Shown: piece after piece, positions 1 through 64,000 of the stretch
Layout: each line of letters begins with the position of its first letter
How positions within the stretch are numbered: the first letter of the stretch is position 1
Notes under the pieces: generated by a model
Told to the model about the DNA's origin: nothing
Database searches by the model: none
The model's input: the letters and a program-made list of their open reading frames with translations, nothing else
Translations under genes and position numbers: made by a program
Source of the DNA: Candidatus Omnitrophota bacterium
GTDB lineage: Bacteria; Omnitrophota; Gorgyraeia; Tantalellales; Tantalellaceae
DNA: 64,000 nucleotides
NCBI GenBank assembly: GCA_015231405.1
Contig: JADGBR010000009.1
Location: 25,423 to 89,422 of the forward strand
Reading direction: 5' to 3'

Positions 1-210
1 AGCCATCTTCATCTCCAGAAGCGACCCTGCCCTTATTACCATAATATCTCCTGGATGAGATGTTCTGGCGTATTCCAGCGCTGTTTCACCGATATTCTCA
101 TCGGTCATCATGTTGTCCTTCGTGAGCTCGGAGATATTCATATTGTAAAGGCTGAGGTCACGTATCACCGGGACCATCACCGGCAGATCTATCCGGCTGA
201 GAAAATCCCC
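1..210 (-). other. Start of the shared C-terminal domain in D (the remainder lies beyond the window start)
   Basis: Translation of 300-1 gives IRRISANTSRPVTALTPRKIREIKAGMSDLGDFLSRIDLPVMVPVIRDLSLYNMNISELTKDNMMTDENIGETALEYARTSHPGDIMVIRAGSLLEMKMA. This matches the C-terminal domains of A (FLPVIMPLINDLGLYNMNFSEI), B (LPALPDVSGLKDNGMYYNLEM) and C (LPVMMAEINDLSMYNFNLCDI). Confidence 0.6.
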
Positions 211-21200: not shown

Positions 21201-23538
21201 TGGCGTCTATTTCGACAACACCCCTCACGGAGTCTATGCTCATAACTTTCTGTTTGACCGTTCCATATTTGATCTCTAAGGCCTTACCGGCGAGGAACAT
21301 CTTTTCTTCCGCGCTTAATAGGCCCATCATATCCCCGACAACGGCGATCATTTTAGCGTCGAGCCCTGTTCCGGACAGCGAGATCCGTCCTCTGTCGTCG
21401 AACCGGCCGCTAAAAACACTTGTGCCGGCTCCCTTAGCCATTGCTACAGCGTTACCCTGGCCGGCCGCCCGCGCTTTTAATTGCCCGTGCCTTTCTTTTT
21501 CTTTAGTCGCCATTGTCCTGAATATATATTCGTTCCCCTCCTTATCCAAAGCTATTTCATCGGGCGAACCCTTGTCATCGTTCGATATCGTAGCGGTGCG
21601 GCCGAGCGCGAAAACACTTATGCCCCCGAGATAAGCTGCGAAAATCTCCGGAGTTACCCGGGCCATTGCACCTTCCTCGCTATAGGCACGTTCATAAGCG
21701 CGGGCCCACTCCGCCTTGGCCTCTTTTATATCCTTTCCTTCCAGCACCGCCGCGCCAAGCGCGCGGTATATCGCCCTATTAATTTTTGCGAATTCCCCGT
21801 CCCACTGGTCGAAGAACGCCGCTAGCGCCAGTTGATACTTTCCCGACTCAAGCACCTTCTCATAATCGCTTTTTTTCTTAGTCAATATCGCGATGTACGG
21901 CCTTTCCTTTCCGGGACCGTATTTGGGAACGACAACGAGATACGACAACCCGTTCTTTTTCATCAGCGACGTAAGCCCTTCCGAATGGAACCCGCCGCTT
22001 ACAAGCGCCGCTATCTTTTCACCTTTCGACCTCATTTCCTTCAAAGTGTTATTGAAGAGGACCTTGTTCCTCTTTTCGGCGTCGATGTAGAACTTCATCG
22101 CTGTCCCGAGAGCGCCGAATATTTCGGCGAGGTCATAACCCTGAACTATTCCCGCTCCAAGCTCCCGGCAATTCCTGTTTATATACTCCGCCCATTCTTC
22201 GGGCTTTAACCTTCCGAGTGAGGCGTTAATGCGCCTGAACTCGGGCTCGCTTATCTCCATCTCATACAGCTGCAAGAGGAGCCTCGCGAGCTCAAGCTTC
22301 TCGAACACCTCGCGTTCCCTGGCGCTCTTCATCAGCTTATCCCCGAGACCCGATTCAAGGCCGGCTATCTCGGAGTAAAGCCCCAGAAAATTAATCGATT
22401 CGTAAACGCCGATGTACTCGTTGAATTTCATCATATTCGCGTACCCGCAGAGCGAAATGCCCGACCTATTCGAGAGGTCGACGAGATAACCATGGAATTC
22501 GCTTTGCGCAATTTTTTTCTGTTTAAAAGCGACGGACTTAAGGACCAGCGTCTCGAGGTCCGTCCGCCCTATGGCCTTTGAAAGCGCATTGATAAGGGCC
22601 AGACGTTCGATATTCGCCTTTTCAAAATTTATTAGCTCTTCAAGCTCTACTGCCCTTATCAATTTTGATATCTGGACATACGGTGAAATGTCATATCCTG
22701 ACTTTTCGATGACGGGATATAACGCCTTCCAATACTCCTTGAAGCCCATATCTCCTTTTCTGTGAAGGAAGGCGGCATTATCGACCGTACTCATGTCAGC
22801 CGATAATATCCTTTCCCCGATCCCGGATATCTGCTCAACCAGTTTTTCCAGCTGAAAGCTCAATTTTGCCCTTTCCTCGACGACAGCACGGAAACTTTCC
22901 ACATTCTCCATATACAGCTCATTATCTTCGATGCCGTATAGAGCGATCTTCTTATCGCTGATTATCTGATAGAACTCGCAAGCGCTCATTAACCCTTCAT
23001 TCATGAGATGAGCGGCGGTCTCCTCTTTGATCTTCTCGTCCGGGAAAGTTCTCAGTATAGATGTATCGATATATCCCGTTGATCCCTCGATGGCGACCAG
23101 TGAAAGGTCATAATCCGTAACCAGCTTATCGACGAGAGCCGCTATTGAATACTGGGCCTCTATAGATGAATGAGCGTCCTGAATATTGACTATCGTCTCG
23201 CCGCCAGCATTAAGCGCCCTTTCCTTTATACTAGAGAGATCGTCAGGCAGGGATATGTCATATTTTTCGCGCCTGTCGATCTCTCCCGTCACTTTCGACC
23301 CTGATACTACCCACACGGGTTTACCATTCTCTGTCCAGCCGATCTCATTTTCAACGAATATTACCGATAAAATAATGGATACGATCTTAATAAATTTTTG
23401 ATTCCGGGCTTTCCATGTGCTGATAAGTATATTGTCGTTCTCCTCATCTCTACCTTCGATAGGTTTATCATGGAAGGGAATATTGATCTTTGAAAAAAAG
23501 ATCTTCAGAAGCCCTTTCTTTTCACAAATTGTTTTCAT
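1..23538 (-). CDS. Giant multidomain membrane protein (gene D). At least 7846 codons lie in the window and the 3' end lies beyond the window start
   Basis: The start is ATG at 23536-23538 on the minus strand. An AAGGAAG Shine-Dalgarno sits 7 nt upstream and an in-frame TGA lies at 23566-23568. The frame (codon first bases at coordinates divisible by 3) stays open down to position 1. The ORF track omits it, presumably because there is no stop in the window; only short antisense plus-strand ORFs cover this span. Hand translation was checked at more than 15 sites. Motifs recovered include [22 protein letters not shown] (start), [10 protein letters not shown] at 23190-23160, [13 protein letters not shown] at 22002-21961, [91 protein letters not shown] and [21 protein letters not shown] at 186-121. 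Confidence 0.85.
   Translation of the reverse strand, partial: [7846 protein letters not shown]
7900..9300 (-). repeat. Tandem ~160-aa protein repeats in D (motif YD(D/N)xxDPxxAY...[10 protein letters not shown]). The same repeat begins the visible part of C
   Basis: Translation of 8760-8701 gives [20 protein letters not shown] and of 8280-8221 gives [20 protein letters not shown]. C residues 7-35 read YDDLRAPSFAYVRIRDPLSRDTGKIFRVDV. Confidence 0.55.
10550..11400 (-). other. Domain in D: clan GH-A (GH5-like) glycoside hydrolase (beta/alpha)8-barrel-like domain
   Basis: [40 protein letters not shown] (11340-11221) matches the GH5 strand-1/2 signature GFNxVR(I/L)P. [11 protein letters not shown] was found in translation of 11160-11101 (about 11145-11113). 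[11 protein letters not shown] at 10968-10936 matches the GH5 acid/base region (L/F)ELxNEP. AIHHY and IAVWNWN follow downstream as expected for the family. Confidence 0.5.
12900..16000 (-). other. Long Lys/Glu/Ala/Arg-rich alpha-helical region in D, a predicted coiled coil of about 1000 aa
   Basis: Translation of 14220-14161 gives [20 protein letters not shown] and of 13620-13561 gives [20 protein letters not shown]. There is heptad-like charge periodicity and almost no Gly/Pro runs. Confidence 0.45.
16300..17850 (-). other. Polytopic transmembrane block in D, about 515 aa with roughly 10-12 hydrophobic helices, immediately after the SecA-like core
   Basis: Translation of 17160-17101 gives [20 protein letters not shown]. 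The surrounding translation is dominated by 18-25-residue hydrophobic stretches separated by short charged loops. Confidence 0.5.
17660..20060 (-). other. Domain in D: SecA-like preprotein-translocase ATPase core (NBF1, NBF2 and helical scaffold-like region)
   Basis: Direct translation gives Walker A PMGFGKT (19761-19741), [24 protein letters not shown] (19374-19300) and [40 protein letters not shown] (19020-18901). It also gives [24 protein letters not shown] (18480-18421) and an arginine-finger segment [12 protein letters not shown]. These match in order the SecA signatures [85 protein letters not shown] and RGRSGRQGDPG. Confidence 0.7.
21085..21099 (-). other. HEIGH (HExGH) zinc-metalloprotease-type motif in D, in a hydrophobic context
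   Basis: Direct translation of 21120-21061 gives [20 protein letters not shown]. The motif fits the HExGH of M50/S2P-type or M48-type intramembrane zinc proteases. A carries HELAEH (not canonical) at a roughly comparable position. Confidence 0.3.
21979..23331 (-). other. Domain in D: conserved N-terminal domain shared with A and B. It is tentatively TIKI/TraB/GumN-like and follows a signal-anchor helix
   Basis: D residues ~70-520. The stretch [45 protein letters not shown] is about 75% identical to A residues 86-130. The second His motif GGFHSEG (D) corresponds to GGYHADG (A) and GGFHTGG (B), matching the G-x-x-H-x-x-G pattern described for the TIKI/TraB/GumN superfamily. The family assignment is tentative. 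Confidence 0.45.
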
Positions 23539-24065: not shown

Positions 24066-25427
24066 TTACGAAGAGTCTACTATCCCCGCAAATGGATTAT
24101 CATTGCAAAGTAATATCGTTTTCAGCGTATCAAGTACATCCATCCCGTTCAGTTTGGCCGTCTGGATCACGCTCATAAGAACGCTATGGTATCTAGCTCC
24201 CTGTTCCGATCTGTTGCCGTATGTTATCTTTCTCCGGATAACTCCCGGCCTTATTTCCCGTTCCGCACGATTATTGTGAGATTCGATATCTTTCACGTAA
24301 AAAATGGTGAATATCTCGTTCTTGTGCCTCTCCAGCCTTTTAGCGATTCTATTTAATATTTTCTTATTCGGGTCAGGGAACCTGAAATCCTCAAGACTTT
24401 CTACGATCCGTTTTCGTCTCCTTATATACTCCTCATCCCATTCCTTATTTCGATGTTCGTCGTATAATTTAATACCATCCTTCAGTATCTTTACTAGCCG
24501 CCTGGCGTATCTTATAACCCCCTTATCCTCCCTGTCCCAGAATTCTAGTACCTTTGACAGGTCCCTTAATAAGTGTAATAAACACCGCTGCTTCTTCGCG
24601 GCTATCTTGTTATATGCCGATAAAAAGTCCGTTATCAATACCCCCGTCATAGTGGTCTCCAAGGATACTTTGAACGACCTTTTGCCCCCGGCTAAGGTCT
24701 ATGTGTATCACACTGACGAACCTGGTAACGAATTTCCATAACCACCCCGTCTTTCCGTTTATCTTCCAGCCCGTCTCATCACCGTTGTTAAACGGGCTTT
24801 TTCTTAATTCCGTCATCAGTAGGGAGTATATCCTTTCAGCCTTAGCAGCTGCTTGTCTCCTGAAATCCGTAATAGCCGAATGACATAGCTTAAGTCCAAA
24901 GATCTTATCAAATACTTTACGTATATCCCCGTCGGAGACTTTAACGTCATATTTCATGTATATGGCCAGAGCCTTGGCGATGGGTCCGATGCGACTGTTG
25001 TCCAGCTCGTCCTTACCCCGGCCGGTGACCGTATCCCGGCACACGGGACAATAGTATTTCTTCTTGTCAAACCTGGTCGTTATTATCCCGGGCATGATTA
25101 TGTCCTATGAGTGTGCTGGATGGTTCCCTGGCATTGTCGCAAGTCGCTTGAACCGCAGACCGGACATTCAGTTATCCGGACCTCTACGATCTTGTCTATT
25201 TTGTCTGGTGTTTGCCTGAACCAGCCGATGTGACCGAACAATCCGCCTATTTTAGACTTGGATCTTTTAGATGTTTTCTTCTTTGATTTGGATCTCGGTT
25301 TTTTCTTTCGGTTGAAGAAGTCCGATTTGAATTTATTAAGTTCGAATCGCAAGCAGACTATTTCACCGCGTAATTCCTTAACGGTCTTTTCATAGTCAGA
25401 GCAATCTTTACAACCGGTAATTTGCAT
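24066..25427 (-). pseudogene. IS66-family (single-ORF, ISBst12-like) transposase broken into three frames
   Basis: ORF 25427-25098 ends CPVCGSSDLRQCQGTIQHTHRT. Two bases later, in a different frame, ORF 25095-24610 begins MPGIITTRFDKKKYYCPVCRDTV, so the N-terminal zinc finger is split. That ORF contains DETGWKINGKTGWLW, matching the IS66 DETPxxVxGKxGYLW motif. ORF 24662-24066 overlaps in a third frame and contains HNNRAEREIRPGVIRRKITYGNRSEQGARYHSVLMSVIQTAKLNGMD, matching the IS66 DNNxAERxIRP...GRKNxLF...TAKxNGxDP motif. The two frameshifts indicate a pseudogene or a sequencing error. Confidence 0.65.
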
Positions 25428-26150: not shown

Positions 26151-29100
26151 TCATGCGGAGATCAGAGCGCGCCTGTAACCTTCTATGGCTTCCCGAAGTT
26201 CCAAGTAGTCGATCTTAATGATCCTAGGAATGTATTTAAGAAGACCGCCCGCTATATTGAACCCGAAAAGCTTTTTATCTTTTAAATATGCCATGAATCT
26301 GTCGTTATCGAATTCGGAGTGTCCGATCGACGCCCAGTACGCGATAAAATTCAAAGCGGCGTCGTAGATCTCGCCGGTAGCGATGGCGGACGAATCATCT
26401 CCGTTCTTATACGCTATGACCCTTATATTTTCAGGAAGGGCATCTTCGGAACACATGGCGTCCGGGTCGAATACCGTTATGTATGTTTCAGCCGGAAATA
26501 GCTCTACGGCTATTGCAGCGGCAGTTCTGGCCTTAGCCTCATCAATTGTTAAAAGCTCTATATTCTCCTCTTTCAGATATTTTATTCCCATTTCCTTGAG
26601 GAGCTTCGCCTTCCCGGTTCTCCGCGATACCCGAACGAGCTGTTCTTCCCCGGCAGTTACCGGAGCGAGAACTATCCTGATATCATGTTTCGCTCCTCTT
26701 TTTCTATATGCCTCGGCTATCATTTTCAACTCTCCGAAGGTCCTTACTTTAACCATCAAAGCGTCCTTTCTTCCATCGGCCGTTTTTATCTCCCCGGCCA
26801 TATAATTTACGGCGTCTTTTGTAAGCGAATCCTGCGGCGTCGAGTCCGAACTTATTTCAGAGAAATTCATATTGTAAAGCCCGAGATCGTTAATGAGCGG
26901 CATTATTACCGGAAGGAACATCTTTTCCATTATTGAACTGACGCCCGCATATACTTCTTTGTATTTACCCAGCCGAAGGCTCGTGAACGGGGCGGTTCCA
27001 CCGTCTTTACCCCGCATTAGGGCGTCTAACGCCTCGCTTTTATCCAGGACTTCCATCCGCGCCTCATGTGTTTCCAACTGAGAGACGATCGCCTTTACCT
27101 GTTCGGACACTCCTCCCTTTACGCCGCTGAGCGCCTCAGCCTTGACTATGCCTGTCAAAGCTATTCCTCTGGCTTCGGCGATCTTCGAGATCGTATCGAT
27201 ATTCTTACTCGCGTCAAACGCATTCTGCGTCTCCGGAAGAACAATGAATACGAACTCATCCCTTGGGAACTTTGCCAGCTCCGCGTCTATATCGGCTTCC
27301 TCGAACCCCTGGAATTCCTCTATGCCTATCACGAACCTTTCCCTGACCGGTTTTATATCACCGATCTTTCCCGTTTCGGCCGCAAACCTGGCGTTAGCGA
27401 TGAACCTGGCCCATTGCCTCACGCTGAAAAAAGGATGTTCTCCGCCGGGAGTAAGAGCCGCGGCGAGCTTTTCGGGAAAGCCCGCTATCCTGGCGTCCCC
27501 GGCCGTAGCCTCCTCATCCTCCTCAATAAAGAAAATTATTTTTTCGCCGTCTTCCAGGTCAAGCTTGTTCCAGTTCGAAACAATTCCCGCATTACCTATA
27601 AATGTTTTTGACTTGATCCCTACCCTGATGAACAGCTTAGTATCGCCTTTACAATACCCGGCGCATAAATTTGCCAATGCCCTGCAATTACTTATGTCCC
27701 CGAAATCCAGTTTATTGCTCAACACGAACTTATACGAGATCTTTTTCATACCCAGGACCATATATGGCTTGATCTCATCAAGCAGCGCCCCGGCTCTTTC
27801 ACCCTCGGTCAGGATGAGCATTTCCCTGGATAAGCCCGTATTAATTTCCGAAACGCCGCCTTTATCGTATTTTTTTCCGTCATTTATGATCGCGAACCTC
27901 ACATCCGGATACTTTGGCAATATTTCCTCGACCGCTGCCGCAATATCCTTCCAATCGATCCCTTGGGGAGTAACGATCTTATCTGTCCCGGCTCCAACGG
28001 TAAAACCGTGTATGACCCTGATATCGCTTGCCTGTATCGTGGCTTCGGCGATAGGCGCGCCTTTTTCGCCGTAGACTCTCGGCTGATCCTCACCCTTCAC
28101 CCTGACCTCGAACGCCCTGGCATCGGTAGGTTCCGCCCCGGGATGTTCGCCAAGATACCCGTCATCAAGAACGCCGGCCAAAAAATCTATGAATTTCTCG
28201 ACGTCCGTCTTTGCGCCTTTGACATCAAACCCGACTTTACTGCCGCATTCCATGGCGTATTCCAATAGAACGAGCATGCTGTCGCATTCCATCGAAAGAC
28301 TAGTTCCGTCCTTTAATATCCCGTTCACTTTCATTTTTAATTTCAGCTCCATCAGCTTCCTTATTATAAGATCGCTCACTCGCATGTGCACTCCGTTAGG
28401 GGTCACTACCAAAAGTTCCAGCGGCACTTCGACCTCTCGTTCGTCACGGATCTCGGGCATTATAGGGCCAGCCGTCTCTTTCATCCCGCTGGCTTTGGCC
28501 GGGGAAGGCTCTTCCGCCCGAACATCCTCTACGGGTCTTCCCTCCAGTTTTCTTGAAACATTAGTCATGGATTCGGCCATCAGCCTGTTAAATTCGGGAG
28601 ATCCTCTCATCCTATCGAACCGCACACGGACTTTTTCAAGGATCTTCGCCTCTATTTCTTTATCGGGGATCCCCTCCCATCCTTTAAGAAGCTCAAAAAC
28701 ATTTTCGGCGCTGGTGAACCCTATGTTGGTCTTGACCTTAGTGATAAGTTCCGGGAGCACGCCCTGAAAGAGCGGTATCCCGTATTTCTTAAGGAAATAC
28801 ATGCTGAAAAAGAGCGTTTTGTCCAGTCTCGCGTAATCCCCGCATATCGAAACGGAAACGCCGTTTTCGGAAGCGGCCGCCATGACCTGATCGATCTTCT
28901 CCAACACGGTTTTATTGAAATCGGCGTCAGAAATATCCGTCCTGGGCTTACCGGAAACGGCGGAGGTCAGATCGTTAGATCCTACGCTAAGGAATTTCAG
29001 ACGTTTTCCTTCACCAAGGTCAAAAGTTAATATGTCACGTATGTCAGCCGCAGCTTCAAGCGTTTCTACCATTATACCTATCGCAAGCCCATCTATCCTG

Positions 29101-32100
29101 GCGACGTCGAGATCGCTGATCTTATCAAGGAGCTCCCTCCGGCATTCGGCGAGAACGCTCTTTATGAACTCCATATCTTTTATGGTCTTGACCATCGGGA
29201 ACATCATCCTTATGTTCCCGTATCGGGAACGGACATTAGCCGTCATTATAGCTTTGACCTGGTTCTTAAGCGCCCACCGGCCCGGCTCCGTCCGGTAATA
29301 ATCAAAACTGTTTATCTCTCTTCCCTCATCATCTTTTACGGAAGGGAGAGCGGAACAGATCTTGTCATTCTCCCTGTCGAAAGTCCTTAATGTCACGGGT
29401 TTATCCGCGACGTCGGCAATGGACCTGAAAAGCTCAGACATACTGGCTATACCGGGTTCGACTCCCTTGACGCCGTACATATATTCCGTCCGCCCGAGAG
29501 CGATGCCCGAAGCGCCGTACCGTTCGTACATCTCGCGGACAGCTCTCACCGCTTCTTCCTTGTTCCCGTAAAGGTTTATGTTGCCGTAAACCTTGACGTC
29601 GGCTCCGTCCATTGTTTTCGCCGAATCATCCGCTTTGCGTGAGGCCGCTTCCATCGACGCATAGAAACCCGACATGACCCTTCCTTCCATGTAATCCTGG
29701 AATATCTCCGTCGTGGGCTCCCCTAAATGGACCTTGGCGACGTCGGTCTCGCTGCCCGTGACTTCCTTGTAAATTATCGAGACCTTCTCGCCCATTCTTA
29801 TTTTTTCGTCGAAAAATATCTCGGGTATACCCAGGACGAGAAGAGCTCCCATACCTGTGGCGATTATGGCCACATGCTCGGTCGTGGAACCGTGGGAACT
29901 CACGTAAAATTTTACCCCGTATTTCTCTGTGAGCGCCCTTAAAAGCAGGTCGTCCCTTATGAGCGTCCTTGTCATAACCACCGGCGGACGGGATAAAGCT
30001 TCCGCTTTCTTCATCTCGGCCTCTACTTCGCCCAGAACAACGTCCTCGAGGTCCATCTCCTCCAGAAGAAGGTCGATTATTCCGCTTATTATCGCTTTGA
30101 TCGCAAGCGCTTTGAACATGAGCTCTTCCGAATGCAGTTGCGCTACGGCGTCGACCGAAAAATTCATCTCATACCACAGGCGCAAAGCGAACCGCGCGGT
30201 ATAGCCCTTATCTCTCATAATATCCGAAACTCCGGCAAAAACTATCTCCGCGTGTTTTATCGTTCCGGGGCCTAACGCTTCCAGCTTATCACCATTTTTA
30301 GCCCTTTCGAAACAGGAAGATAATTTAGCCTGTTCCAGCTCCTTTTCGCGTTCCCCGGCAATGTATCCGCGGTCCAAAGTCCGTACCAAGTTAACCATAA
30401 GGTTATTGGTGCTGTCGCCGTTGTCGACCCCGAGCCGGTTATTCCTGTACAAACGGTAGACTTTCGAGAAAACCTGGCGGGCGGCGCTGGGCTTTGGCGT
30501 CCCTTCTTCCTTGAGATCCACCTCCCGATAAATTTCCATGAGAGCGCCGTACATCCCCTGGGCTATGCTCCTTTCTCTTTCATCATGGGCCATATCCATT
30601 GCTTTGTCATAATATTTGATCCTTGAACCCAGGACGCTTTGAAGATGCATCCTTTCCTTGTCAAGATCGTCCTCGGGCACCACGGCCTTGCCGGTAAGTT
30701 CGTTCTCTTCTATCGTTTCCCTGCCAACGTCAAGGACCACGGCATACCCGTCGAGAATAGCTCCCGGGATACCGTTAGAACGGCATATTACGGCTCCATC
30801 CATCAGAGCGCGGTATTTGCGGATCGTTCCGGCATATGCCTCTCTTTCTTTTTCCAAAGAACCCACTATCTCAAACACGCCTTCGGAAGCCGTTGGGCCC
30901 GTTTTCCTGTATGAATCATAGAGTCCGGATAATTGTTCGTCGCTAAGCTCCTCTTTTTCCGATAATGATCTCTGGAACTGGAACAAAGAAAGGAATATTT
31001 CGGCCTGGTTCCCGCTTTCTAGCGGCCTCGCGGGATAAATATGATGGTACATGCCTCTTGTCTCGATCAAAGGCAGGATACCTGATGATGATATCCTGTC
31101 GCTTATGGCTCTAAAATCTCCGGCCCTGTCGGTCGTCGAGATCATTATCTGCGTCATTGGCCCGGCCCCTTCGAGCCCCTTTTCGACGTCAGAGGGTATG
31201 TACCTCCTTCTGTCGTTCAAGACCACAAAATACTTTTTCACGCCTTCCGAAGCGGCCTTCTCAGACATCCGGTAAGCCGTCCAGAGGTCGAATATCTCAT
31301 CGTAGAGATAGTCCGCGTGCCTGACTATGTGGTAAGGTACGAACATCCTCTCCATAACGGCCCTGGCGAACTCGAACGGTATGGGTTCGGCCGCTTTAAG
31401 CTCCTCGGGCAGGTCGGACAAACTCTTTAGCGAATTTATCAGGTCAGCTTCTTTTGATATCCGATCAAGGACGGCTCCCGAGGCGCCCTCATAAAGTCCC
31501 GCCGGAACCACGGGCGCGCCTGTCTTTTGAGGTTGCCGCTGGGGAGTGACTTCCTCCCGCACAAACTCCTTTGGTATACCCACAAAGAGATTTATCGCGG
31601 GCAATAATACCAGCATCCCCAGAAAATGAGCTATGCCCGCTCTCACACCGGGATCGGACGGAATATTCAGGCGCTTCATGAGTTTAAGAGCCCTGTGCTC
31701 GGCGAGCTCGTGACTGAGGATATTTCGCCGTACCCATTGTTTATTTATCAGCCAGAAAGCCGCGTGCGGCCTTTGTACGCCTTTTAGAGTCACGCCTGCG
31801 AGATGAACGCCCTTAAGCCCCTCTTTCTCTTCTGATGTAAGATAAGATCTCCCCTCGGAGGCCTCTATCTCCGAGAGTTTCCAGCGGGTAAGCGCTCTGT
31901 AAGCCTCCCCTTTTATCAGGTAAAATCGGATGGAAGCGTATCCCGCGTAAAACCCGGCTCCCATTATAGCGGCTGAGCACCAGGTTAAACCATGTGCGGC
32001 CGCCATATTGCTCAACCCGAAATAAACAAGCGCCCAGGCCGTAACCAGGCTAATACCGTACCACCTGACGCCGGAAATGACGCGGAACGAGTGAGCCGGC

Positions 32101-34625
32101 TCACCCGGAATGTCCCCACCAGTAGCGGATGTCTTAATGACCGGTACGGGCACGGCTTCCGGAACGGCGGACGGCGCTGCCACATAGACAGCTTGTCTGG
32201 CTGCTATTTCCCCGTAAGCGCTCCTTACCCTCACGAAAAACGCGTTTAAACGTTCCGCTATAGTATCGCCGTTCGATCCTTGTAAAGTTCCATAGAGCGC
32301 CGCGTAATCGTAGGGTATCTTTATTCCCTTGATGTCCCTGATCAGCCCGATGATATTCCGGTCGGAAGGCTCGGCCTTATCGTGATAGATCTTTTCGGCC
32401 ATCTGCTTTACCACAGCATCGTTGTCAGCCAGTCCGTCAAGAACCGGCTCAAGTTCCATACCGGCAACTACGGAACGCTGTATGAGAGCGCGTATCTCAG
32501 GCATGGCATGGCCTTCATCCGTCACGCCATCTAAAGTCCTTAACGCTTCTGCGAAATCATCCGGAGTTCCGGGCTTAGACGGTTCCATGGGCACTTTCAT
32601 TCTGGCGTTAAAAGCCCTTCTCTCGGCCGGGGAAGTTATCCTGAACTCATATTTAAGAGGCTGACCGTTCTTAACGGCCTCCCGCACTATGGTAACGAAA
32701 GTCACGACCGGAGAATTACCGTCATATATCACCGCGCATCCGCTGACCTTTCTGACGGTGATATTGTCGATGAACCGCCCGAAGGTTTCCGCAGCGATAA
32801 CCGGCCTTCCGGGCCCGGCAGAATGAGCGTCATAGTGAACGGCATAATCGGCTTTCCATTTTGCCTTTAACGACACGGTATCAGCTCCGCGAAGCGATGC
32901 TTCACCGAGAGAATAGAAAACAACGGGCCTTACGATATCAAAAGCATACTCGGGATCTTTAGACAGTCTTTCGGGGGTCAGTTCGTCAAAAAAGCCTTTT
33001 AATGCCAGCTGATACCTGCCGGCATCAAGCACTTTTTCGTACCGGCTCTTTTTATTAGTGAGCACCGCGATATACGGTCTTTCATTCCCTTCCGCGTATT
33101 TAGGTATAACTATGAGATACGATAAGCCTTTCTTACGCATGAGCTCGGAGAGACCGTCGGCGTGATATCCACCGGTAATAAGGGCAGCGACGTTCCTTCC
33201 CTCCTCCCTCATCCTCTTTACCGTGTTATCGATGATAGACCTGTTCCTTATCTCCGCGTCAAGATAGAACCGCATCGCCGGGTCTATCCCGCTCTCGATC
33301 GCGTTAAGATCGTACGCTCCGGCTGCCGGCACGCCGTATTTGGCGCTCCACTTCCTTAAAAGACGCGCCCATTTGCCCGCTCCAAAGTCCCTCCTCCTCT
33401 CTTCTATCGCCTGGAACTCTCCGCTTGAAAGCTCCATGGAATACAGCTGCTTTAACATCCTGACGTCGTTCATCATCGAGTATAGCTCGCGCTCGTCAGA
33501 GTTCCTGTAAAGTCCTTCCATGACCCTTGACTCGGCGAGCGCCGCGTCACGGTAAAGCCCGGCCACATTGATAGAGTTGTATATCGAGACATATCTCGTG
33601 TATTTTATGAGATCGCCGAACCCTTCGCTATCTATCCCGTTCGATCCCGCGAGTTTTAGCAGATATCCGTGGAACTCCGCCTCGGCTATGCGCCTATTCT
33701 TAAACGATACTGATCTAGAGACGAGCTCTTCAAGCGACCTTTTATCCAGTACTCCGGCAAGGCTGTCTATGAGCCTTTTCCGCTGGGCGTTCGCGAGTGA
33801 AAAATCTATGGAATCCTCAAGCGTGACGGATTCCACCAGTTTATCAAGCTCCTTGTATTCCCCGATATCCACGCCGGACCGCCTGAGCATAGGCCCGGTT
33901 TTTCGCCAATAGCCCTTAAAGCTTTTTTCGCCCGAACGGTGCGCTATGCAGTTCGCGTGAAATTCCCTGAGTTCCTCCGACGAACACTTAGCCTCGAACG
34001 CTTCCAGCTGAGCTAGAAGCGAATCGATATTAGAGCGTTCCTCCGACATCATGCCGGCGAGTTTTCCGAAACTCTCAACGTTCTTCGCGTATAGATCCTC
34101 ATCCTCTATACCGTATAGCGCTATATCCTTAGAGGAAGTCACGTCGAAGAACTCTCCGGCGCTCATCCTGCCTTCACTCATAAAATGACCTGCCGTATCC
34201 CGCCTTATATCCTTATCCGGAAATGTTTTCAAAACGGAAGTATCGATATACCCGGTAGAACCCTCTACCGCCACCAGAGACAATTCGTAATCATTGGCCA
34301 GCGAATCGAGAAGTTCAGCTATGGAATACTGCGCGGATAGCGACGAATGGGCGTCCTGGATATTGACTATGAGCTCTTTTCCGCCGGTCGAATTCACTTC
34401 GCTTACACCCGCTAGGTCGTAAGGGATCGCAATATTTCCCCGTTCAGGATTATCCCCCGGAAAGGTTGTCCTTTGTATTTCGGCATATTCCCACGATGAC
34501 GAGACATCGGCCGTAAAGCCGCTTTCCTGCCAGAAGAAAACGAAGGCAACGAGAAGTGCAATCGTTCGGATAAATAACGGATAAGAGCTGTTCTCTTTCT
34601 TACCGCGTGAGAAGTTTTTTGACAT
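26151..34625 (-). CDS. Giant multidomain membrane protein (gene A), 2824 aa. Domains are the N-terminal conserved domain, a PTS Enzyme-I-like phosphoHis domain, a PEP-utilizing TIM barrel, an HPr-like domain and the shared C-terminal domain
   Basis: Complete ORF from the track, ATG at 34623-34625 and TGA at 26151-26153. Hydrophobic signal-anchor at residues 20-32, further helices at 857-905 and 996-1018. It shares N- and C-terminal domains with B, C and D. Confidence 0.9.
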   Translation of the reverse strand: MSKNFSRGKKENSSYPLFIRTIALLVAFVFFWQESGFTADVSSSWEYAEIQRTTFPGDNPERGNIAIPYDLAGVSEVNSTGGKELIVNIQDAHSSLSAQYSIAELLDSLANDYELSLVAVEGSTGYIDTSVLKTFPDKDIRRDTAGHFMSEGRMSAGEFFDVTSSKDIALYGIEDEDLYAKNVESFGKLAGMMSEERSNIDSLLAQLEAFEAKCSSEELREFHANCIAHRSGEKSFKGYWRKTGPMLRRSGVDIGEYKELDKLVESVTLEDSIDFSLANAQRKRLIDSLAGVLDKRSLEELVSRSVSFKNRRIAEAEFHGYLLKLAGSNGIDSEGFGDLIKYTRYVSIYNSINVAGLYRDAALAESRVMEGLYRNSDERELYSMMNDVRMLKQLYSMELSSGEFQAIEERRRDFGAGKWARLLRKWSAKYGVPAAGAYDLNAIESGIDPAMRFYLDAEIRNRSIIDNTVKRMREEGRNVAALITGGYHADGLSELMRKKGLSYLIVIPKYAEGNERPYIAVLTNKKSRYEKVLDAGRYQLALKGFFDELTPERLSKDPEYAFDIVRPVVFYSLGEASLRGADTVSLKAKWKADYAVHYDAHSAGPGRPVIAAETFGRFIDNITVRKVSGCAVIYDGNSPVVTFVTIVREAVKNGQPLKYEFRITSPAERRAFNARMKVPMEPSKPGTPDDFAEALRTLDGVTDEGHAMPEIRALIQRSVVAGMELEPVLDGLADNDAVVKQMAEKIYHDKAEPSDRNIIGLIRDIKGIKIPYDYAALYGTLQGSNGDTIAERLNAFFVRVRSAYGEIAARQAVYVAAPSAVPEAVPVPVIKTSATGGDIPGEPAHSFRVISGVRWYGISLVTAWALVYFGLSNMAAAHGLTWCSAAIMGAGFYAGYASIRFYLIKGEAYRALTRWKLSEIEASEGRSYLTSEEKEGLKGVHLAGVTLKGVQRPHAAFWLINKQWVRRNILSHELAEHRALKLMKRLNIPSDPGVRAGIAHFLGMLVLLPAINLFVGIPKEFVREEVTPQRQPQKTGAPVVPAGLYEGASGAVLDRISKEADLINSLKSLSDLPEELKAAEPIPFEFARAVMERMFVPYHIVRHADYLYDEIFDLWTAYRMSEKAASEGVKKYFVVLNDRRRYIPSDVEKGLEGAGPMTQIMISTTDRAGDFRAISDRISSSGILPLIETRGMYHHIYPARPLESGNQAEIFLSLFQFQRSLSEKEELSDEQLSGLYDSYRKTGPTASEGVFEIVGSLEKEREAYAGTIRKYRALMDGAVICRSNGIPGAILDGYAVVLDVGRETIEENELTGKAVVPEDDLDKERMHLQSVLGSRIKYYDKAMDMAHDERERSIAQGMYGALMEIYREVDLKEEGTPKPSAARQVFSKVYRLYRNNRLGVDNGDSTNNLMVNLVRTLDRGYIAGEREKELEQAKLSSCFERAKNGDKLEALGPGTIKHAEIVFAGVSDIMRDKGYTARFALRLWYEMNFSVDAVAQLHSEELMFKALAIKAIISGIIDLLLEEMDLEDVVLGEVEAEMKKAEALSRPPVVMTRTLIRDDLLLRALTEKYGVKFYVSSHGSTTEHVAIIATGMGALLVLGIPEIFFDEKIRMGEKVSIIYKEVTGSETDVAKVHLGEPTTEIFQDYMEGRVMSGFYASMEAASRKADDSAKTMDGADVKVYGNINLYGNKEEAVRAVREMYERYGASGIALGRTEYMYGVKGVEPGIASMSELFRSIADVADKPVTLRTFDRENDKICSALPSVKDDEGREINSFDYYRTEPGRWALKNQVKAIMTANVRSRYGNIRMMFPMVKTIKDMEFIKSVLAECRRELLDKISDLDVARIDGLAIGIMVETLEAAADIRDILTFDLGEGKRLKFLSVGSNDLTSAVSGKPRTDISDADFNKTVLEKIDQVMAAASENGVSVSICGDYARLDKTLFFSMYFLKKYGIPLFQGVLPELITKVKTNIGFTSAENVFELLKGWEGIPDKEIEAKILEKVRVRFDRMRGSPEFNRLMAESMTNVSRKLEGRPVEDVRAEEPSPAKASGMKETAGPIMPEIRDEREVEVPLELLVVTPNGVHMRVSDLIIRKLMELKLKMKVNGILKDGTSLSMECDSMLVLLEYAMECGSKVGFDVKGAKTDVEKFIDFLAGVLDDGYLGEHPGAEPTDARAFEVRVKGEDQPRVYGEKGAPIAEATIQASDIRVIHGFTVGAGTDKIVTPQGIDWKDIAAAVEEILPKYPDVRFAIINDGKKYDKGGVSEINTGLSREMLILTEGERAGALLDEIKPYMVLGMKKISYKFVLSNKLDFGDISNCRALANLCAGYCKGDTKLFIRVGIKSKTFIGNAGIVSNWNKLDLEDGEKIIFFIEEDEEATAGDARIAGFPEKLAAALTPGGEHPFFSVRQWARFIANARFAAETGKIGDIKPVRERFVIGIEEFQGFEEADIDAELAKFPRDEFVFIVLPETQNAFDASKNIDTISKIAEARGIALTGIVKAEALSGVKGGVSEQVKAIVSQLETHEARMEVLDKSEALDALMRGKDGGTAPFTSLRLGKYKEVYAGVSSIMEKMFLPVIMPLINDLGLYNMNFSEISSDSTPQDSLTKDAVNYMAGEIKTADGRKDALMVKVRTFGELKMIAEAYRKRGAKHDIRIVLAPVTAGEEQLVRVSRRTGKAKLLKEMGIKYLKEENIELLTIDEAKARTAAAIAVELFPAETYITVFDPDAMCSEDALPENIRVIAYKNGDDSSAIATGEIYDAALNFIAYWASIGHSEFDNDRFMAYLKDKKLFGFNIAGGLLKYIPRIIKIDYLELREAIEGYRRALISA
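26154..26918 (-). other. Domain in A: shared C-terminal domain
   Basis: KMFLPVIMPLINDLGLYNMNFSEI ... ending YLELREAIEGYRRALISA. It is homologous to the C-termini of B (ELESRRQALWSA), C (NEFKRYQEILTRA) and D. Confidence 0.6.
28146..28418 (-). other. Domain in A: HPr-like phosphocarrier domain
   Basis: VVTPNGVHMRVSDLIIRKLMELKLKMKVNGILKDGTSLSMECDSMLVLLEYAMECGSKVGFDVKGAKTDVEKFIDFLAGVL aligns with HPr (APNGLHTRPAAQFVKEA ... SNGKSASAKSLFKLQTLGL ... EGEDEQKAVEHLVKLMAEL), including the active-site His. Confidence 0.55.
28776..29528 (-). other. Domain in A: PEP-utilizing enzyme C-terminal TIM-barrel domain (Enzyme-I-like)
   Basis: IALGRTEYMYG matches RTEFLFM. VTLRTFDRENDK matches IRTLDIGGDK. YGNIRMMFPMVKTIKDMEF matches GNLRIMFPMI. 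IGIMVETLEAAADIRD...FLSVGSNDLTSAV matches IGIMVETPAA...FSIGTNDLTQY. Confidence 0.7.
29751..29903 (-). other. Domain in A: PEP-utilizing enzyme mobile (phospho-histidine) domain
   Basis: SSHGSTTEHVAIIATGMGALLVLGIPEI (residues 1576-1603) matches the GGRTSHAAIIARELGIPAVVG signature of PTS Enzyme I, PPDK and PEP synthase, including the catalytic His. Confidence 0.6.
33096..34373 (-). other. Domain in A: conserved N-terminal domain (tentatively TIKI/TraB/GumN-like)
   Basis: IVNIQDAHSSLSAQYSIAELLDSLANDYELSLVAVEGSTGYIDTS at residues 86-130 and ALITGGYHADGLSELMRKKGLSYLIVIPKY at residues 482-510 are closely similar to D and recognisably similar to B. Confidence 0.45.
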
Positions 34626-34697: not shown

Positions 34698-37600
34698 TTA
34701 CGCTGACCATAGAGCCTGACGTCGGCTCTCAAGTTCCGCCCGGGCGTCAACCGGCATAGCCGGCATGTTCATGAGCAGTCCCTTTATGAAATTGACCACG
34801 GCCTGTATCGACCGTTGGTCCGCGGGAAGAAGGTTGGTATCCTTGACCTCGTCGAAGCTCATCATAAAATATATATCGGACGGGGACACCCTTCTGCCGG
34901 TGAACTGCGTGAACAACACTTCCAATTGGTCCAGGTCTTTTTTATCCACTTGTTTATCGACAACCCGTACCGCCGAGAGGACCGATCCGGCGGCCAGCAT
35001 CTCAAGATTGTAATACATACCGTTATCCTTGAGGCCTGACACATCGGGCAATGCCGGGAGTTTGACGGCTTTTGAAAGGATCGCGCTTTCAACGCCGGTT
35101 TCGGTATCAGCGTTCTCATAATTTGCCACTGTTCCGAGTAAAACCTGGCGCGCGTCAGCCCTTAAAGAGCCGGCCCTGATCTCCGAGAAACCGACTTCCG
35201 AGTTGAACGTGATTATTCTGGCATCTATCCCAAGTTTCGTCCTGAGTACCTGCTCCAGCTCCCTTTTCTCATCGCCCGTGAAGGCTTCTTTGGGCATTAT
35301 ATAATCTATCTTTTCACCGTTGAGTTTAGCCGAGTAGGCCTTGGCTGTCTGGAACGCCTTAACTATGGTTTTTTCAGGACCCATAGGGATATGCCCGGTA
35401 TATACCCTGGTATCCTCGTCGGCTGACACGAGAGTATATTCCCCTAAACCCGCTGATACCATTTTTCTATCTCCGGATTTCAGGGTAATGATATTCCCAT
35501 CCCCGTCCCTGAGAAGTTTTCCCGTACGGTCCACTATTCTGATCGCTCCTTTCTCAACGGAAAGGATATGGTCAGAACGACTCGCCAACGCGTCAACTTT
35601 CACTGACCCGCCCATAGTCATTGTATACCCGGTCCTCATAAAATTGTCGCCGATCCCGATGATCTCGACCTTCGCGTCCCGCGCGTCAGAAGTGATAAGC
35701 GGCACCGGTGCCGCTTCAAGGGTTTCCACAGTGCGATCGCCCGCGGCGAGCTCACCGGAGGCGTCAATATCCAGAAGATACTTAGTTCCGTCGAGCGCCT
35801 CACCGCTATCGTCAGCCATGACCGCCTGGGGGAAAACCTCTCCCGGAGTTAATTCGCCCTCGCCGGGCATAGCCGCGTCATCGCCGAAGCGCGCCGCGTC
35901 CTGTACGGGAAGTCCGGCCAGGCGTGACCAGTTCTTAGCGACAATACCGCTAAGCCCTTTCGGGTCACCGACTTCAGGCCCTGGGTGGCTATCGCTAAAA
36001 ACGGAAATAGTCCCGTCGCTCATGATACCGAACCCTAATTCTTTGAACTGGTTAAGCTGCAAAAGCGCCCTTATGAGGGGAGGTGCCAGATATCTGCCCT
36101 TTGACGACATCTTCGGGTCCTCGACGTCGAGACCGACGGCTGAAACCCTGTCGCCCGTCCTCTCCCTGACACCTGCCCTGTCGGCCGGTATATAGTGCGA
36201 TTCATAAGCGGTGTAAAGAGAAGGCTCCCTTAAAAGCACGTACGTCATGTAATCCGCTACCATCTCCCAATCGGGTTCCGGTGATCCCTTCTCAGCCTGC
36301 AGATCCGCCCTGTGCTGCACCGACATGAACCTGTAAAGGTCTTCCATCATTGTCGCGGCGGTCGTTCCCGGAGGATCGTTCTCGAAAAGGGCGTTGTGGA
36401 TATAGATCATTAGAGCTACCTTATTATCCCTGATGGCGGCCCCTATCTCCGGTGTTATTATCGCCGAACCGATATTCGATACCAGCGTCGTTGGGAACAT
36501 AAGAAGAAGCCTGGAGTTCCTTATCGCCATTTCCGCGAGCGGATTAGAGGCTACTTTTTCGCTCGGCACAAGGACTTTTATCACTCCCTGGATGTCGCCT
36601 TCGTTTATTGCTTTTCTCAACGCCTCTTTTTGAGCCGCGTCAAGTACCGGGCGTTCCCTTATGACCGTCTTCTGGAACGGCCCCACCTTGGAGATCTCAT
36701 TGAAAGCGTCTTCGGATGGAAGGAACTGTATCCTTGTCGTGGGAACACCGTTTTCGTCTGTCTGGTAAGCCAGACCCGCGAGATGATATCTCCTTAACGT
36801 CACCGGATGTACCCGTCCCTGAACGTCAAGGAAAGTCTCCATTTCCCTTATGGTAAGATACCACGCGATATCGGCGCTGGTAGATCCCGCCTCGATCAGT
36901 ATCGATATTTCACCGTCTATCGCCGCCCTTTCCTCCGTCGAGAGAAAACCGTCCGGGTGGTCAGGAGCGGGTTTCGAAAGAGTAAGGAGCGCCGAACTTG
37001 GCACTGTCCCGCCAGGAAGCGCGTCTATCGCTTCATTGAAACATATCTGTGCGCCCACAAGGGTCATACTCCTCAAAGGCATGTCATATTTCGGGATCTC
37101 CACATTGGCGCAGAACTCCGCGTAAAGAAGGTCCCTAACTATCTGATCTTTCCCGTCCCTGATCAATTGATTGAGGACATGCTCGAGTTTTTCCTCAAGC
37201 GCGAGCACCCTCTCCTCGGGGTCGAGTTTAAGATCGCATAAAAGATGTCCCTGGTTTCGGGTAGGGTTCAGCATCTCCCAGAGCGTATTATCGGTAAGGC
37301 CGATTATGGCGCCCTCGGCGTCCCTCTTCGTCATTTCCGGGTGGGACTTCGCGAAATAAGCGAGTATATTTCCGACGAACGCCCCCCACACCTTTTCAGG
37401 TTCAGCCTTGGTCTTATCCTGTAATATACATTCCCTAAGTTCCGTAAGCGTATGTACCAATATCTCCTTGGCTTCGGCTACGGCCATACCGCCTCTCCTC
37501 ATATCATCCAGACGGCGATTGAACGCGGCTACATAGCCGTTAATAGCTTTAACCTTGGGAGCGTTCTTCGGCGAGACCTGCCCATACTGGGCCATGCGTA

Positions 37601-40600
37601 TCGCCGACGGCACCACCTCACCCTGGGCAGCTTGGCCCGCGAAAGTCTTATTGAAATTGGAGAGCGAAGCGATATTGCTGAACCTCGTGCCTCCGAGTAT
37701 AGCGGCCAATTCCCCGTCAAGAGCGCCGTCCATGAGACATTTACCTATGTCAGGCATGCCCGGAGAGTGGAACATAAGACTGGCCAGAAGCCAGCTCCTG
37801 CCGTCGTCCGTCGCTCCCGGGAACATGTTCATGGCAAGATCATGCCCCCCTATCCCCATAAGCCCCAGCTGTCGCCTGACTTCCTTCAGGAACCAGTTCG
37901 CGCCGCGGCCGCCTCTAAAACATCCCAGGTCAAAAGGCATCTGGTTGCGTAAAGTAACGCCTATGTACGATTCGGGTCCGAAAGCGGCAACGTACAGCGC
38001 CACTATCTCCTCGTCCGATAACCCCTCGCCTCTTTCCGGGGCGATTAGCGCGCCTAAAGCGGCTTTCTTATCGTCAAGATCTCCGCGTCCCAGGGCCGGG
38101 TTCTTGACATAATTCACATACTCGCCGTAAGCGCCCAATAGCGCGAGTATCTGGTCAGGCGCCTTTAACAGAGAATAACGCTGTATCGCCATACCCATCT
38201 CGAACCAATCTCCGTAATCCGAAAGAGCTACCATTTGCCTTGTGTAATTCTTACTTTTTCTGTCGTACGTACTTCCGTCGGTGTTATGCATCTCGACTAC
38301 CGGCCGCTTTACGACCATCAGTTGAGGTTTGATACCTTCGGCCGCGAGAGAAGCTACCTTGTTATAAAGCTCTCTATACCGGCTTTCCTGGCCGCGCACC
38401 GTAACTTTAAGCTGCGCGTAACTGGTCTGATTGGCGGTTGGAGGCCTCGCGCTTATACCCGACTTGACGAACCAATCCCTATACACGGTTTCCGGATCGA
38501 CCACCATGGATATAACTTCTGTCCTATTAATGAGCGCGGTATATAATTTAAGATCAGCTTCGGCATCTTTGGTCCTTTCTCCCACGGCGTCTTTTCTATC
38601 CGAATCGACCTTTAGCATGTCTATGAGAGTCTTGGCTCTTTCGGGCTGTCCATCCTGAACCAGGATACAAAGCGCCGTAGCTACGCTCGTGAACCTGCCG
38701 GCCATAGTAAGGCCCGCTTTTTCTACCGCTGCTTCATCTCCGGATAAAATACTCTTCATCTGCTTATAAGCATGCCCCTCACTATACATGATCAAAGACT
38801 CTGACAAAGTCTCCTCTTCATCCCTTATACCCTGGAAAGTCCCTTCCTTTATATCAGCCCCTTCAGGAATAATAGCCGCCTTTCCTTTTATTTTAACGTT
38901 CTTCAGTATCTTACCGCGTTCCGTGTGTTTCCCATCTTCCAGCCACTGCCCCGCACCGGCCCCGATATATGCTCTATCAGCCAATATCGTACAGTTCCTC
39001 ACCAAAGTCAGCGAATTGATCTGACCGTCCTGGGCCGGCTCATAACTCGTTACCCTACGGGCCATGACAAGTTTATGGTCGCCGAGGATCACCGCCGAAT
39101 CCTTTCTGGGCACAACCAACCCCTGCACACCCCAGCCGTTGCCGATATACAGGCGCCCTTCGGTATTTACCCCGTCGAGATATGTTCCGTTGCCGATCCT
39201 CGTGAATTTGTTCTTGATATCGATCTTACCGGCAAGCACTATCTGGTCTATTATGCGCAGTATCTGTTTCTTTTCCATGTCATACTGTTTCTTTCCGAAC
39301 ATGGAAAGAACATCCTGAACCGTACTTTCGGTAGCCTCTTTAAGGGTCCCGTCAGGGTTATAGCTCAATTTGATGTCTCCCGGCGCGAGCGGAAGAGTGA
39401 GCGGCTGACCGACTATCGCTGGATCCGCGTCAAGAAGGGTGATCAATAAACCCATATTCGCGACGAGCTGCCTTATGACATACTGCGGTTCTTTCGCCCT
39501 GGCGAGGTCTATCGTCTTATCCTCCTCACCGGTATCCTGCTCCCGAAGCTCTTTGAGGTCGCTTAATATCCTTTCCCCGTTCCTGACCTCCTGCAAAAGC
39601 ACTGATTCTATCTGCGATAACTCCTCTCCAAGCAGCACCTCTTTCATTTCCCCGTAAGAGCCGGCATTATCATAGCCTTCATCCTCGCCGGACTTACGAT
39701 AAACATACTCCATGACCTCTTTTCTTTTCTTACGGGCTTCTACGCTGCCCGCGTCCTTCGGCATCCTTTTTTCGGCGACGAATCTGGAATTATTCGAAAG
39801 AGGCAAATTATCCATGAGAAAACTGTCAAAGATCTCGGAATCCCGTCCTATGGTCCTAAGGGAGTTGTTCGCGCCTTTCACTCCCCGTATCGTGGAACCA
39901 TATACCTTACAGTTCCTTCCTACGTGACAGTATCCCAGTATGGCGCTGTTCTTTATTTCGGTAAATTTATTGTCGCTCCCGGAACGTATCTTTGACGTGA
40001 GATCAAGATGCACTTTACCCGAAAGTTTTATCCCGCGCGCCCTACCTTCCGCGGCGTCCTGGAAAACACCACCCGGACCGAATAAACTCTCTTTCACGGA
40101 GGCCAAAGTGAACACCTTCGCCTCAGGCCCGGGATTAAGAGAGATATAGTCCAACCCGCTTATATCCACCCCTCCTTCTTCAAGTATCTTTCTCAGCTCG
40201 AGCTGCCAGAACCTGTTGAACTCGTTCTGGCGCCATGTGTTCTTTATACCGTCCGGAGCGGCCGCGAAACGGGTATAGCCTACGGGTATACGAGCTCCCG
40301 GCTTATTAATGGCGTACCAGTCCCATAACGGGACTATCGGATCGGCCGGAGTACTTTCAAGTATCCCTTTCTTGCTGTCTACCTGTCCCTGCAGGTCCGG
40401 ATGATCATCCACCATCTCTATGAACGTCGACTCGGCCTGCGCTGTCCCGTTCGCCGCCTTTCTCCACGGATTGGAATGTTTTATTGTAGCCATGTCCCTG
40501 TGCATAACGACCACATTGGCGTTTATCGGCACGGTATGTCTCTGCCCGGCCGTAGTATCGGTATGTATGGTCTCGATGAGCGCGTCAACTTCCTCCTCAG

Positions 40601-63980: not shown

Positions 63981-64000
63981 CGTGAAATTGTCCTCGCCAA

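Follow-up and report, generated by a model that had tools for sequence, protein, structure and literature searches.

A shared C-terminal domain in long proteins of Candidatus Omnitrophota: extent, family and possible roles

Very long proteins encoded side by side raise the question of what their ends have in common. We analyzed a 64,000-nucleotide stretch of Candidatus Omnitrophota DNA (hereafter the window; contig JADGBR010000009.1, positions 25,423 to 89,422), the minus strand of which holds four long open frames, D, A, B and C, and asked whether these proteins end in one shared domain and what such a domain could do. A first-pass annotation of this DNA had proposed that all four proteins carry a common C-terminal domain, marked by an LPV...YN motif and a tail of approximately 120 to 250 amino acids (aa). 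We found that A, C and D end in one previously unnamed domain of approximately 365 to 395 residues, here called the module, and that B, one of the four genes, is without it, which corrects the earlier claim. The open frames are as follows.

Positions 1-23565, minus strand: open frame D, 7855+ aa, with its C-terminus beyond the left window edge
Positions 26151-34625, minus strand: open frame A, 2824 aa
Positions 34698-46808, minus strand: open frame B, 4036 aa
Positions 46971-63998, minus strand: open frame C, 5675+ aa, with its N-terminus beyond the right window edge

Genes C and B are separated by 162 bp, and B and A by 72 bp. The part of C that lies in the window is 100% identical to residues 1501-7175 of MBF0216447.1 (P0002), a protein encoded on a 93,998-bp contig of a Candidatus Omnitrophota metagenome-assembled genome.

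A C-terminal domain shared by A, C and D

Using blastp, the tails aligned at 22% identity over 408 aa for A and C (A 2429-2824 versus C 5308-5675), at 29% identity over 210 aa for A and D (A 2431-2635 versus D 7657-7854) and at 31% identity over 124 aa for C and D. Local-alignment z-scores against 200 shuffles were 19.5, 26.6 and 15.1 for the same three pairs. By both measures, the similarity among A, C and D is not limited to the short motif. The module starts approximately 125 to 140 residues upstream of that motif, and it is therefore larger than the tail proposed initially. A six-frame profile scan of the window returned exactly three copies.

Positions 26154-27332, minus strand: C-terminal module of A (residues 2432-2824; profile 1-358, E = 2e-90), with the stop codon, 26151-26153, directly after it
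Positions 46974-48068, minus strand: C-terminal module of C (window residues 5311-5675, equal to MBF0216447.1 6811-7175; profile 1-358, E = 4e-115)
Positions 1-594, minus strand: first half of the C-terminal module of D (residues 7658-7855; profile 1-187, E = 4e-44), with the remainder beyond the left edge

The motif was scored with a position matrix trained only with family members from other genomes. The sites of A, C and D reached 27.6 to 33.7 bits, and the runner-up site anywhere in these three proteins reached at most 15.2 bits.

Positions 26865-26915, minus strand: LPV...YN motif of A, LPVIMPLINDLGLYNMN, 29.9 bits
Positions 47643-47693, minus strand: LPV...YN motif of C, LPVMMAEINDLSMYNFN, 27.6 bits
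Positions 136-186, minus strand: LPV...YN motif of D, LPVMVPVIRDLSLYNMN, 33.7 bits

The motif by which the family is defined here has the form LPxI..ELSxYNxRM, at approximately 230 to 255 residues before the protein end, and it was recovered in A, C and D. A C-terminal ending of the form ...ExYxxxL(I/M/T)(A/R/S)A-COOH was found in A (EGYRRALISA) and in C (KRYQEILTRA), while the end of D lies outside the window. The module of A also has a 73 to 74% identical copy in a Joint Genome Institute (JGI) metagenome (P0001). Compared with the identity between A and this copy from another sample, the mutual identity of 22 to 31% shows the modules of A, C and D, as judged from their sequences, to be old paralogues under constraint.

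Similarity of this kind could in principle come from chance, from low complexity or from a recent duplication within the contig. C and D do share a 65% identical stretch of approximately 2,600 residues elsewhere (C residues 8-2608, 56175-63977, minus strand; D residues 5091-7644, 634-8295, minus strand), which is a large segmental duplication between two long genes; the first ~170 residues of C also match a nearby repeat in D at residues 4928-5053. However, the duplicated stretch ends short of the module, at C residue 2608 and at D residue 7644, just before the D module. Furthermore, the tails are only 22 to 31% identical, their shuffle z-scores are 15 to 27, and 61 further representatives come from other contigs and samples. 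We give this explanation virtually no weight, and chance as the source of the module similarity is excluded.

An internal motif-like site, LPDVNSLT(T/L)DL(S/Q)AYQ(A/D)I, was seen at D residues 6104-6120 (5206-5256, minus strand; 15.2 bits on the motif matrix) and at C residues 1074-1090 (60777-60827, minus strand; 7.5 bits). A weak profile match (E = 0.7) across D 6065-6140 covers it. It may represent what is left of a module made internal by an old gene fusion, or it may be due to chance.

Protein B gave a different result. Its tail, compared with A, C, D and the family consensus, yielded shuffle z-scores of at most 1.0, and with all HMMER filters off it scored -2.2 bits against the 66-sequence family profile. 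The site previously taken for the motif within 34701-35321, LPALPDVSGLKDNGMYYN, scored no more than -2 bits and lies 120 aa from the end, which is a nonequivalent position. The best site for the motif matrix anywhere in B reached 3.2 bits, and the B tail had no homologue in an index of 5.8 billion proteins. The first-pass placement of domain and motif consequently holds for A, C and D and fails for B. Alignment of B to the family with hhalign was limited to the last 28 residues (43% identity, E = 0.34).

Positions 34701-34784, minus strand: last 28 residues of B, KGLLMNMPAMPVDARAELESRRQALWSA, the sole part of B that resembles the family

The last 12 of these residues (34701-34736, minus strand), ELESRRQALWSA, resemble the end of A, AIEGYRRALISA, and ranked fourth on the family matrix among 86,177 background windows (4/86,177 12-mers as good). 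B ends in ESRRQALWSA, a partial match to the family ending. Recent DNA exchange as the source of this ending was ruled out because the codons differ from those of A. A frameshifted copy was likewise ruled out, since the six-frame scan gave only the three copies and no relic in any frame. B has presumably lost or replaced the module and retains at most its last helix. Its ending indicates either that the free C-terminus is important by itself or that it is the last remnant of a lost module.

The module family and its predicted fold

We searched 1.84 billion representative proteins with an HMMER profile built from the tails of A, C and D and one close metagenomic copy. This search gave 63 matches, 45 of them with an E value of 1e-10 or lower; word-index homology searches had found one relative with the A tail and, among the candidates considered, at least two with a 34-sequence profile. 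Apart from C itself and P0001, the copy of A, the matches comprise 61 representatives with E values down to 3e-47. The module ends within 3 residues of the protein end in 59 of the 63; two are truncated inside the module and two have an extension of 5 to 6 residues. A stop codon directly follows the module in 11 of 11 fetched loci. All named cluster members belong to Candidatus Omnitrophota, as do six of six loci from species-representative genomes; two copies each are present in two of these. The longest host protein has 7,175 aa. The search gave no firm evidence for a stand-alone form among the family matches: the short matches that were looked up sit on contigs of 1.3 to 2.9 kb and are therefore fragments, except for P0045, which is on a 21.8-kb contig. 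Together, these results show a rare family, restricted to Candidatus Omnitrophota among named members and always placed at the extreme C-terminus of a larger, usually very long protein.

The first-pass annotation could assign the domain to no known family, and this stands. Pfam, NCBIfam and PADLOC returned nothing for the tails (Pfam and NCBIfam at E <= 0.1 to 1), and a member-by-member Pfam scan of 34 tails revealed no recurrent family. A weak match to MEDS in 3 of the 34 members (E ~0.08) was judged to be chance, as were Cdc42 (E = 0.5) and FtsZ (E = 0.26) from PDB sequence profiles, for which the GTPase motifs are absent. We conclude that the module defines a genuine domain family of long Omnitrophota proteins that has so far gone undescribed.

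To describe its structure, we used an AlphaFold2 model of the A module built from 34 sequences, with a mean predicted local distance difference test (pLDDT) score of 78 and values mostly of 75 to 95 over residues 160-360. A model from 4 sequences (pLDDT 52) was too poor and was left unused. The model consists of a small N-terminal beta-alpha-beta lobe, long helices, a low-confidence segment and then a larger alpha/beta lobe, at the end of which come a beta-hairpin (WFxLPxI) and, last, a long helix. In its first part, the LPV..YN motif falls in the low-confidence, nonregular segment (residues 134-148), and the Asn of YN is conserved in at least 90% of the family. From this prediction we infer that the module is a folded unit of two alpha/beta lobes, with long helices between them, and not a linear signal. 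Foldseek searches with the model against the PDB and viral models gave nothing at E <= 1e-3, so that this check also brought up no well-known family. The phosphotransacetylase (PTA)-like domain of the malic enzyme MaeB and other three-layer alpha/beta folds showed 5 to 8% identity, with Z in the grey zone for a 393-residue query; any likeness to the PTA/isocitrate-dehydrogenase-like fold (MaeB PTA, Pta, PlsX) is probably one of fold class only.

Members usually end in ...WFxLPxIxxIDxxxLRxEIExYxxVL(I/M)(A/R/S)A-COOH, and the family consensus ends in ...VLIAA. Its last ~17 residues (consensus EELREEIERYEKVLIAA) are predicted to form a charged amphipathic helix, without a terminal hydrophobic helix. 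Such an ending might act as a tag in its own right: the free C-terminus (L-[IM]-[ARS]-A-COOH) would be recognized by a tail-specific protease or unfoldase, as an ssrA-type degron or as a mark that translation is finished, by which the cell could distinguish full-length from truncated long proteins. Complete tails end in Ala in 58 of 62 cases and in Ala-Ala in 36 of 62, with Leu at position -4 in 47 of 62, and B keeps the ending at the protein level with different codons. The ssrA tag ends in LAA-COOH, to which the module ending is similar but not identical, and we take this as a lead only. However, the residue before the last can be A, R, S, G, D or M, which fits an ssrA-type LAA poorly. Moreover, the ending is predicted to lie against the domain as the final turn of a long helix, so that its conservation may be purely structural, and a tag would account for approximately 10 residues and not for the conserved module of ~365 to 395 residues. 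We consider this explanation improbable.

Paired ends, variable middles and the side of the membrane

The opposite end of these proteins is also conserved. A, B and D share an N-terminal domain (N-domain) of approximately 530 to 640 aa at 27 to 41% identity, located behind a signal-like hydrophobic segment.

Positions 32706-34625, minus strand: N-terminal domain of A (residues 1-640; identity of 41% with D and of 27% with B)
Positions 45201-46799, minus strand: N-terminal domain of B (residues 4-536), found by blastp and the N-domain profile
Positions 21562-23394, minus strand: N-terminal domain of D (open-frame residues 58-668), found by blastp and the N-domain profile

Its invariant residues include IQDAH, EG and GG.H..G, and it has no Pfam or PDB relative. 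A possible likeness of its motifs (IQDAH, EGS, GGFHTEGL) to TraB/TIKI/GumN was unsupported, with no Pfam or PDB match at E <= 1. The N-domain profile matched the N-terminus of five other module-bearing members (P0025, P0053, P0030, P0018 and P0049) and also two N-terminally cut fragments (P0016 and P0047). These matches bear out the earlier suggestion that both ends are conserved and the middle varies. They show a recurrent build: an N-terminal hydrophobic segment, the N-domain (~600 aa), a variable middle with enzyme domains and membrane helices, and the C-terminal module.

The middle has only ~210 residues in P0053, which is encoded on a 1.43-Mb contig, and more than 7,000 in D, and its contents vary. 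A carries a phosphoenolpyruvate (PEP)-utilising enzyme domain and weaker HPr-like and mobile-domain matches. C holds guanylate kinase and S-adenosylmethionine (SAM)-methyltransferase domains, and B holds phosphoglucomutase domains I-III and a weak CofD-like match. D has SecA_DEAD, preprotein-binding (PP_bind) and partial P-loop domains, with the rest of SecA unmatched and without scaffold or wing domains. Other members contain enolase (P0025), HEAT repeats (P0011) or PEP-utilising domains (P0012 and P0020). Cargo from central carbon metabolism recurs, namely PEP-utilising, HPr-like and mobile domains (A, P0012 and P0020), enolase (P0025) and phosphoglucomutase (B, P0037 and L003), in each case as part of a membrane-associated long protein. 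The two enolase domains of P0025 are swapped, with the C-domain ahead of the N-domain.

Four loci came with ~10 kb of sequence beyond the module gene. In three of them (L002, L003 and L010), a gene that opens with the N-domain lies 0.2 to 7.7 kb downstream of the module gene, and the tandem layout of the window is therefore typical. No conserved small accessory gene was seen next to the module genes in the loci checked; the genes downstream of related loci concern cell-wall synthesis, GAF-HD, AAA and similar functions. In L010, a 549-aa GAF-GAF-HD protein (10781-12427) is encoded between the module-bearing gene and the next N-domain gene, an arrangement not seen in the other loci.

We located membrane helices with a hydropathy scan, which is a crude method. 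It counted 21 hydrophobic helices in D and 14 in C, and one of those in D lies shortly before the module, in a region that reads ...LAVLVIIVGKRFAGER.

Positions 703-759, minus strand: strongly hydrophobic helix 36 residues ahead of the D module (D residues 7603-7621, then GKRFAGER; Kyte-Doolittle mean 3.21)

Among the 39 members with enough upstream sequence, 18 show a strongly hydrophobic helix between 10 and 100 residues ahead of the module, and Lys/Arg often come after it. According to the positive-inside rule, these residues would place the module on the cytoplasmic face, beside the membrane. We infer that, in members with a helix just upstream, the module is probably cytoplasmic and next to the membrane. 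This side agrees with the cytoplasm-type enzymes encoded upstream in A and C.

These observations bear on whether a signal for export or sorting resides in the module, or in its extreme C-terminus, and would send the long proteins outside or to a surface layer, as the proposal of a sorting function in the first pass would imply. The position is strictly C-terminal and the last residues are conserved, with B too keeping ...R.ALxSA. In addition, a role at the cell surface has been proposed for the giant proteins of Omnitrophota (10.1101/2023.11.21.568195). The module thus resembles C-terminal sorting domains (type IX C-terminal domain [CTD], type I/RTX, sortase LPXTG and PEP-CTERM) in its placement at the extreme C-terminus of large proteins and in its conserved ending, but it differs from them in size, in predicted fold and in its likely cytoplasmic location in many members. 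The type IX CTD is a terminal beta-sandwich of approximately 70 to 100 aa. The tails had no Pfam or NCBIfam match to it, or to any sorting domain, at E <= 0.1 to 1, and their predicted fold is alpha/beta and ends in a helix. No RTX-type calcium-binding nonapeptide repeat family was found in A-D, and transporter genes were absent from the window and from the checked genes beside related loci. The terminal membrane helix and basic tail of sortase, PEP-CTERM or GlyGly-CTERM anchors are absent from the module end. Likewise, an alpha/beta domain of ~365 to 395 aa is unlike known C-terminal signals, and Lys/Arg after the preceding membrane helix, found in about half of the members, indicate the cytoplasmic side. 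Finally, the PEP-utilising, HPr-like and guanylate-kinase cargo uses substrates that are cytoplasmic. Sorting in the sense of a secretion signal is quite unlikely for a domain of this kind.

The first-pass annotation had also compared these proteins to polymorphic cargo systems. Like Rhs, CdiA and MafB, they are large paralogous proteins with conserved parts and a swappable part. In those systems, however, the tip is a variable toxin followed by an immunity gene, whereas here the C-terminal end is conserved, the variable part is internal and holds housekeeping-type enzyme domains, and no small gene lies downstream (gaps of 72 and 162 bp). The likeness is therefore formal only.

Apart from the four long genes, the gene content of the window is limited to the remnant of an IS66 element.

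Positions 24066-25427, minus strand: broken IS66-family transposase between D and A, with G+C of ~45% across 22-26 kb

This region contains three neighboring short open reading frames. Two of them match the two halves of an IS66-family transposase, which points to a broken insertion sequence, and the third, upstream one had no match.

Possible roles of the module

Omnitrophota long or giant membrane proteins of the 'Archaeovorin' type, with more than 30,000 aa, have been described in two preprints (10.1101/2023.11.21.568195, West-Roberts et al. 2023; 10.64898/2026.06.07.730766, 2026). The proteins in the window resemble that type in their phylum, in their many hydrophobic helices and in the divergent SecA DEAD and preprotein-binding domains of D without the rest of SecA; methyltransferase, phosphoglucomutase and other sugar-metabolism domains also match the published domain sets. 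A-D differ from that type in length, however, with 2.8 to more than 7.9 thousand residues against a size criterion of >30,000 aa. Published analyses describe Omnitrophota long and giant proteins as poorly conserved and hard to interpret, and searching these papers by terms gave no passage on a shared C-terminal module or N-terminal domain (10.1101/2023.11.21.568195; 10.64898/2026.06.07.730766; PMC10066038). On that basis, the build with paired end pieces appears to be undescribed.

As a tentative reading, in keeping with the assembly function suggested in the first pass, we favor a docking or assembly role for the module, common to the differently loaded proteins that are encoded in tandem. 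Two features favor it: one module is present on differently loaded proteins of one array, and the most conserved linear motif lies partly on a nonregular, low-confidence segment, as interaction motifs often do. According to this proposal, paralogues of a single gene array that carry different cargo would bind among themselves, or to a common partner, via the module, and this binding would gather the enzyme cargo at a single membrane site. A working analogy is provided by the docking domains of polyketide and non-ribosomal peptide synthases, which are also conserved terminal pieces of very long, tandem-encoded multi-enzyme polypeptides. Those domains are helical and a few tens of residues long, with the C-terminal domain of one subunit pairing with the N-terminus of the subunit that follows. 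The module differs from them in being a two-lobed alpha/beta domain of ~365 to 395 aa, with an N-domain that is probably across the membrane, and no relationship in sequence or fold between the module and docking domains was found. Head-to-tail docking of the module on the N-domain of the next protein was dropped as a candidate, because the N-terminal segment is export-like, so that in most members the membrane probably separates the N-domain from the module.

A different function is possible, though somewhat doubtful: the module may be a ligand-binding (regulatory) or catalytic alpha/beta domain that would sense or convert a small molecule shared by all members, irrespective of cargo, in a pocket made by its conserved residues at the C-terminal edge of the predicted sheet. 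In the model, the near-invariant Glu201 and Lys203 open the helix behind the first lobe-2 strand (SLGExK), Asp289 ends a strand (AIVD), Glu307-Tyr308 end another (FxEY), and Ala-Thr precede a helix bearing Tyr-Asp; Thr319 and Tyr323-Asp324 count among the conserved residues. On the other hand, no known nucleotide- or phosphate-binding motif is present, and A departs from the consensus in having Ser for Arg 295 and MGIKY for MEIDD. In AEAHR, the His is replaced by Tyr in A and by Phe in C, and lobe 2 does not include the most conserved linear motif (LPV..YN). A phospho-His domain resembling IIA-mannose of the phosphotransferase system (PTS) was considered and dropped, as the first strand does not end in a conserved His.

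Several observations weigh against the docking role. B persists, and may function, without the module. The conserved polar residues are spread across the whole module (Asn44, Asn154, Glu201, Lys203, Tyr308, Glu382 and Tyr386), and several conserved residues, together with the IVD, EY and AT..YD segments, lie at or just past predicted strand ends. In alpha/beta folds, ligands are usually bound, and active sites usually located, at strand ends, and a role in binding or catalysis would therefore suit these residues equally well. The membrane topology adds a further difficulty: P0053 and P0047 have no membrane helix between N-domain and module, and the N-terminal segment of the family resembles an export signal, basic before the helix and acidic or neutral after it, which taken literally would put the module outside the cytoplasm in these two proteins. 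Overall, we regard a ligand-binding or catalytic role as almost as likely as docking, and the export and degron explanations as less likely than either.

The simplest evolutionary reading is that an ancestor of ~1,200 aa would have consisted of the N-domain and the module, between which cargo was inserted repeatedly. By extension, and with considerably less confidence than we place in docking itself, the N-domain and the module might be the fixed ends of a so far unrecognized Omnitrophota system for building and assembling membrane-tethered multi-enzyme proteins, in which cargo cassettes (enolase, PEP-utilising/HPr-like, phosphoglucomutase, guanylate kinase, SecA-like and others) would sit between the ends, the module would join the differently loaded paralogues of an array in one membrane-located complex, and the free C-terminus would serve to check chain completion.

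Omnitrophota are characterized by their long and giant proteins, and the module profile provides a sequence handle by which one coherent family of them can be recognized. The same profile helps to tell complete genes from assembly fragments. The paired conserved ends are evidence that these proteins grew by insertion of cargo between two fixed ends. With ~365 to 395 residues, the module is also a defined, foldable and tractable piece of proteins that, in full, are far too large to express and test.

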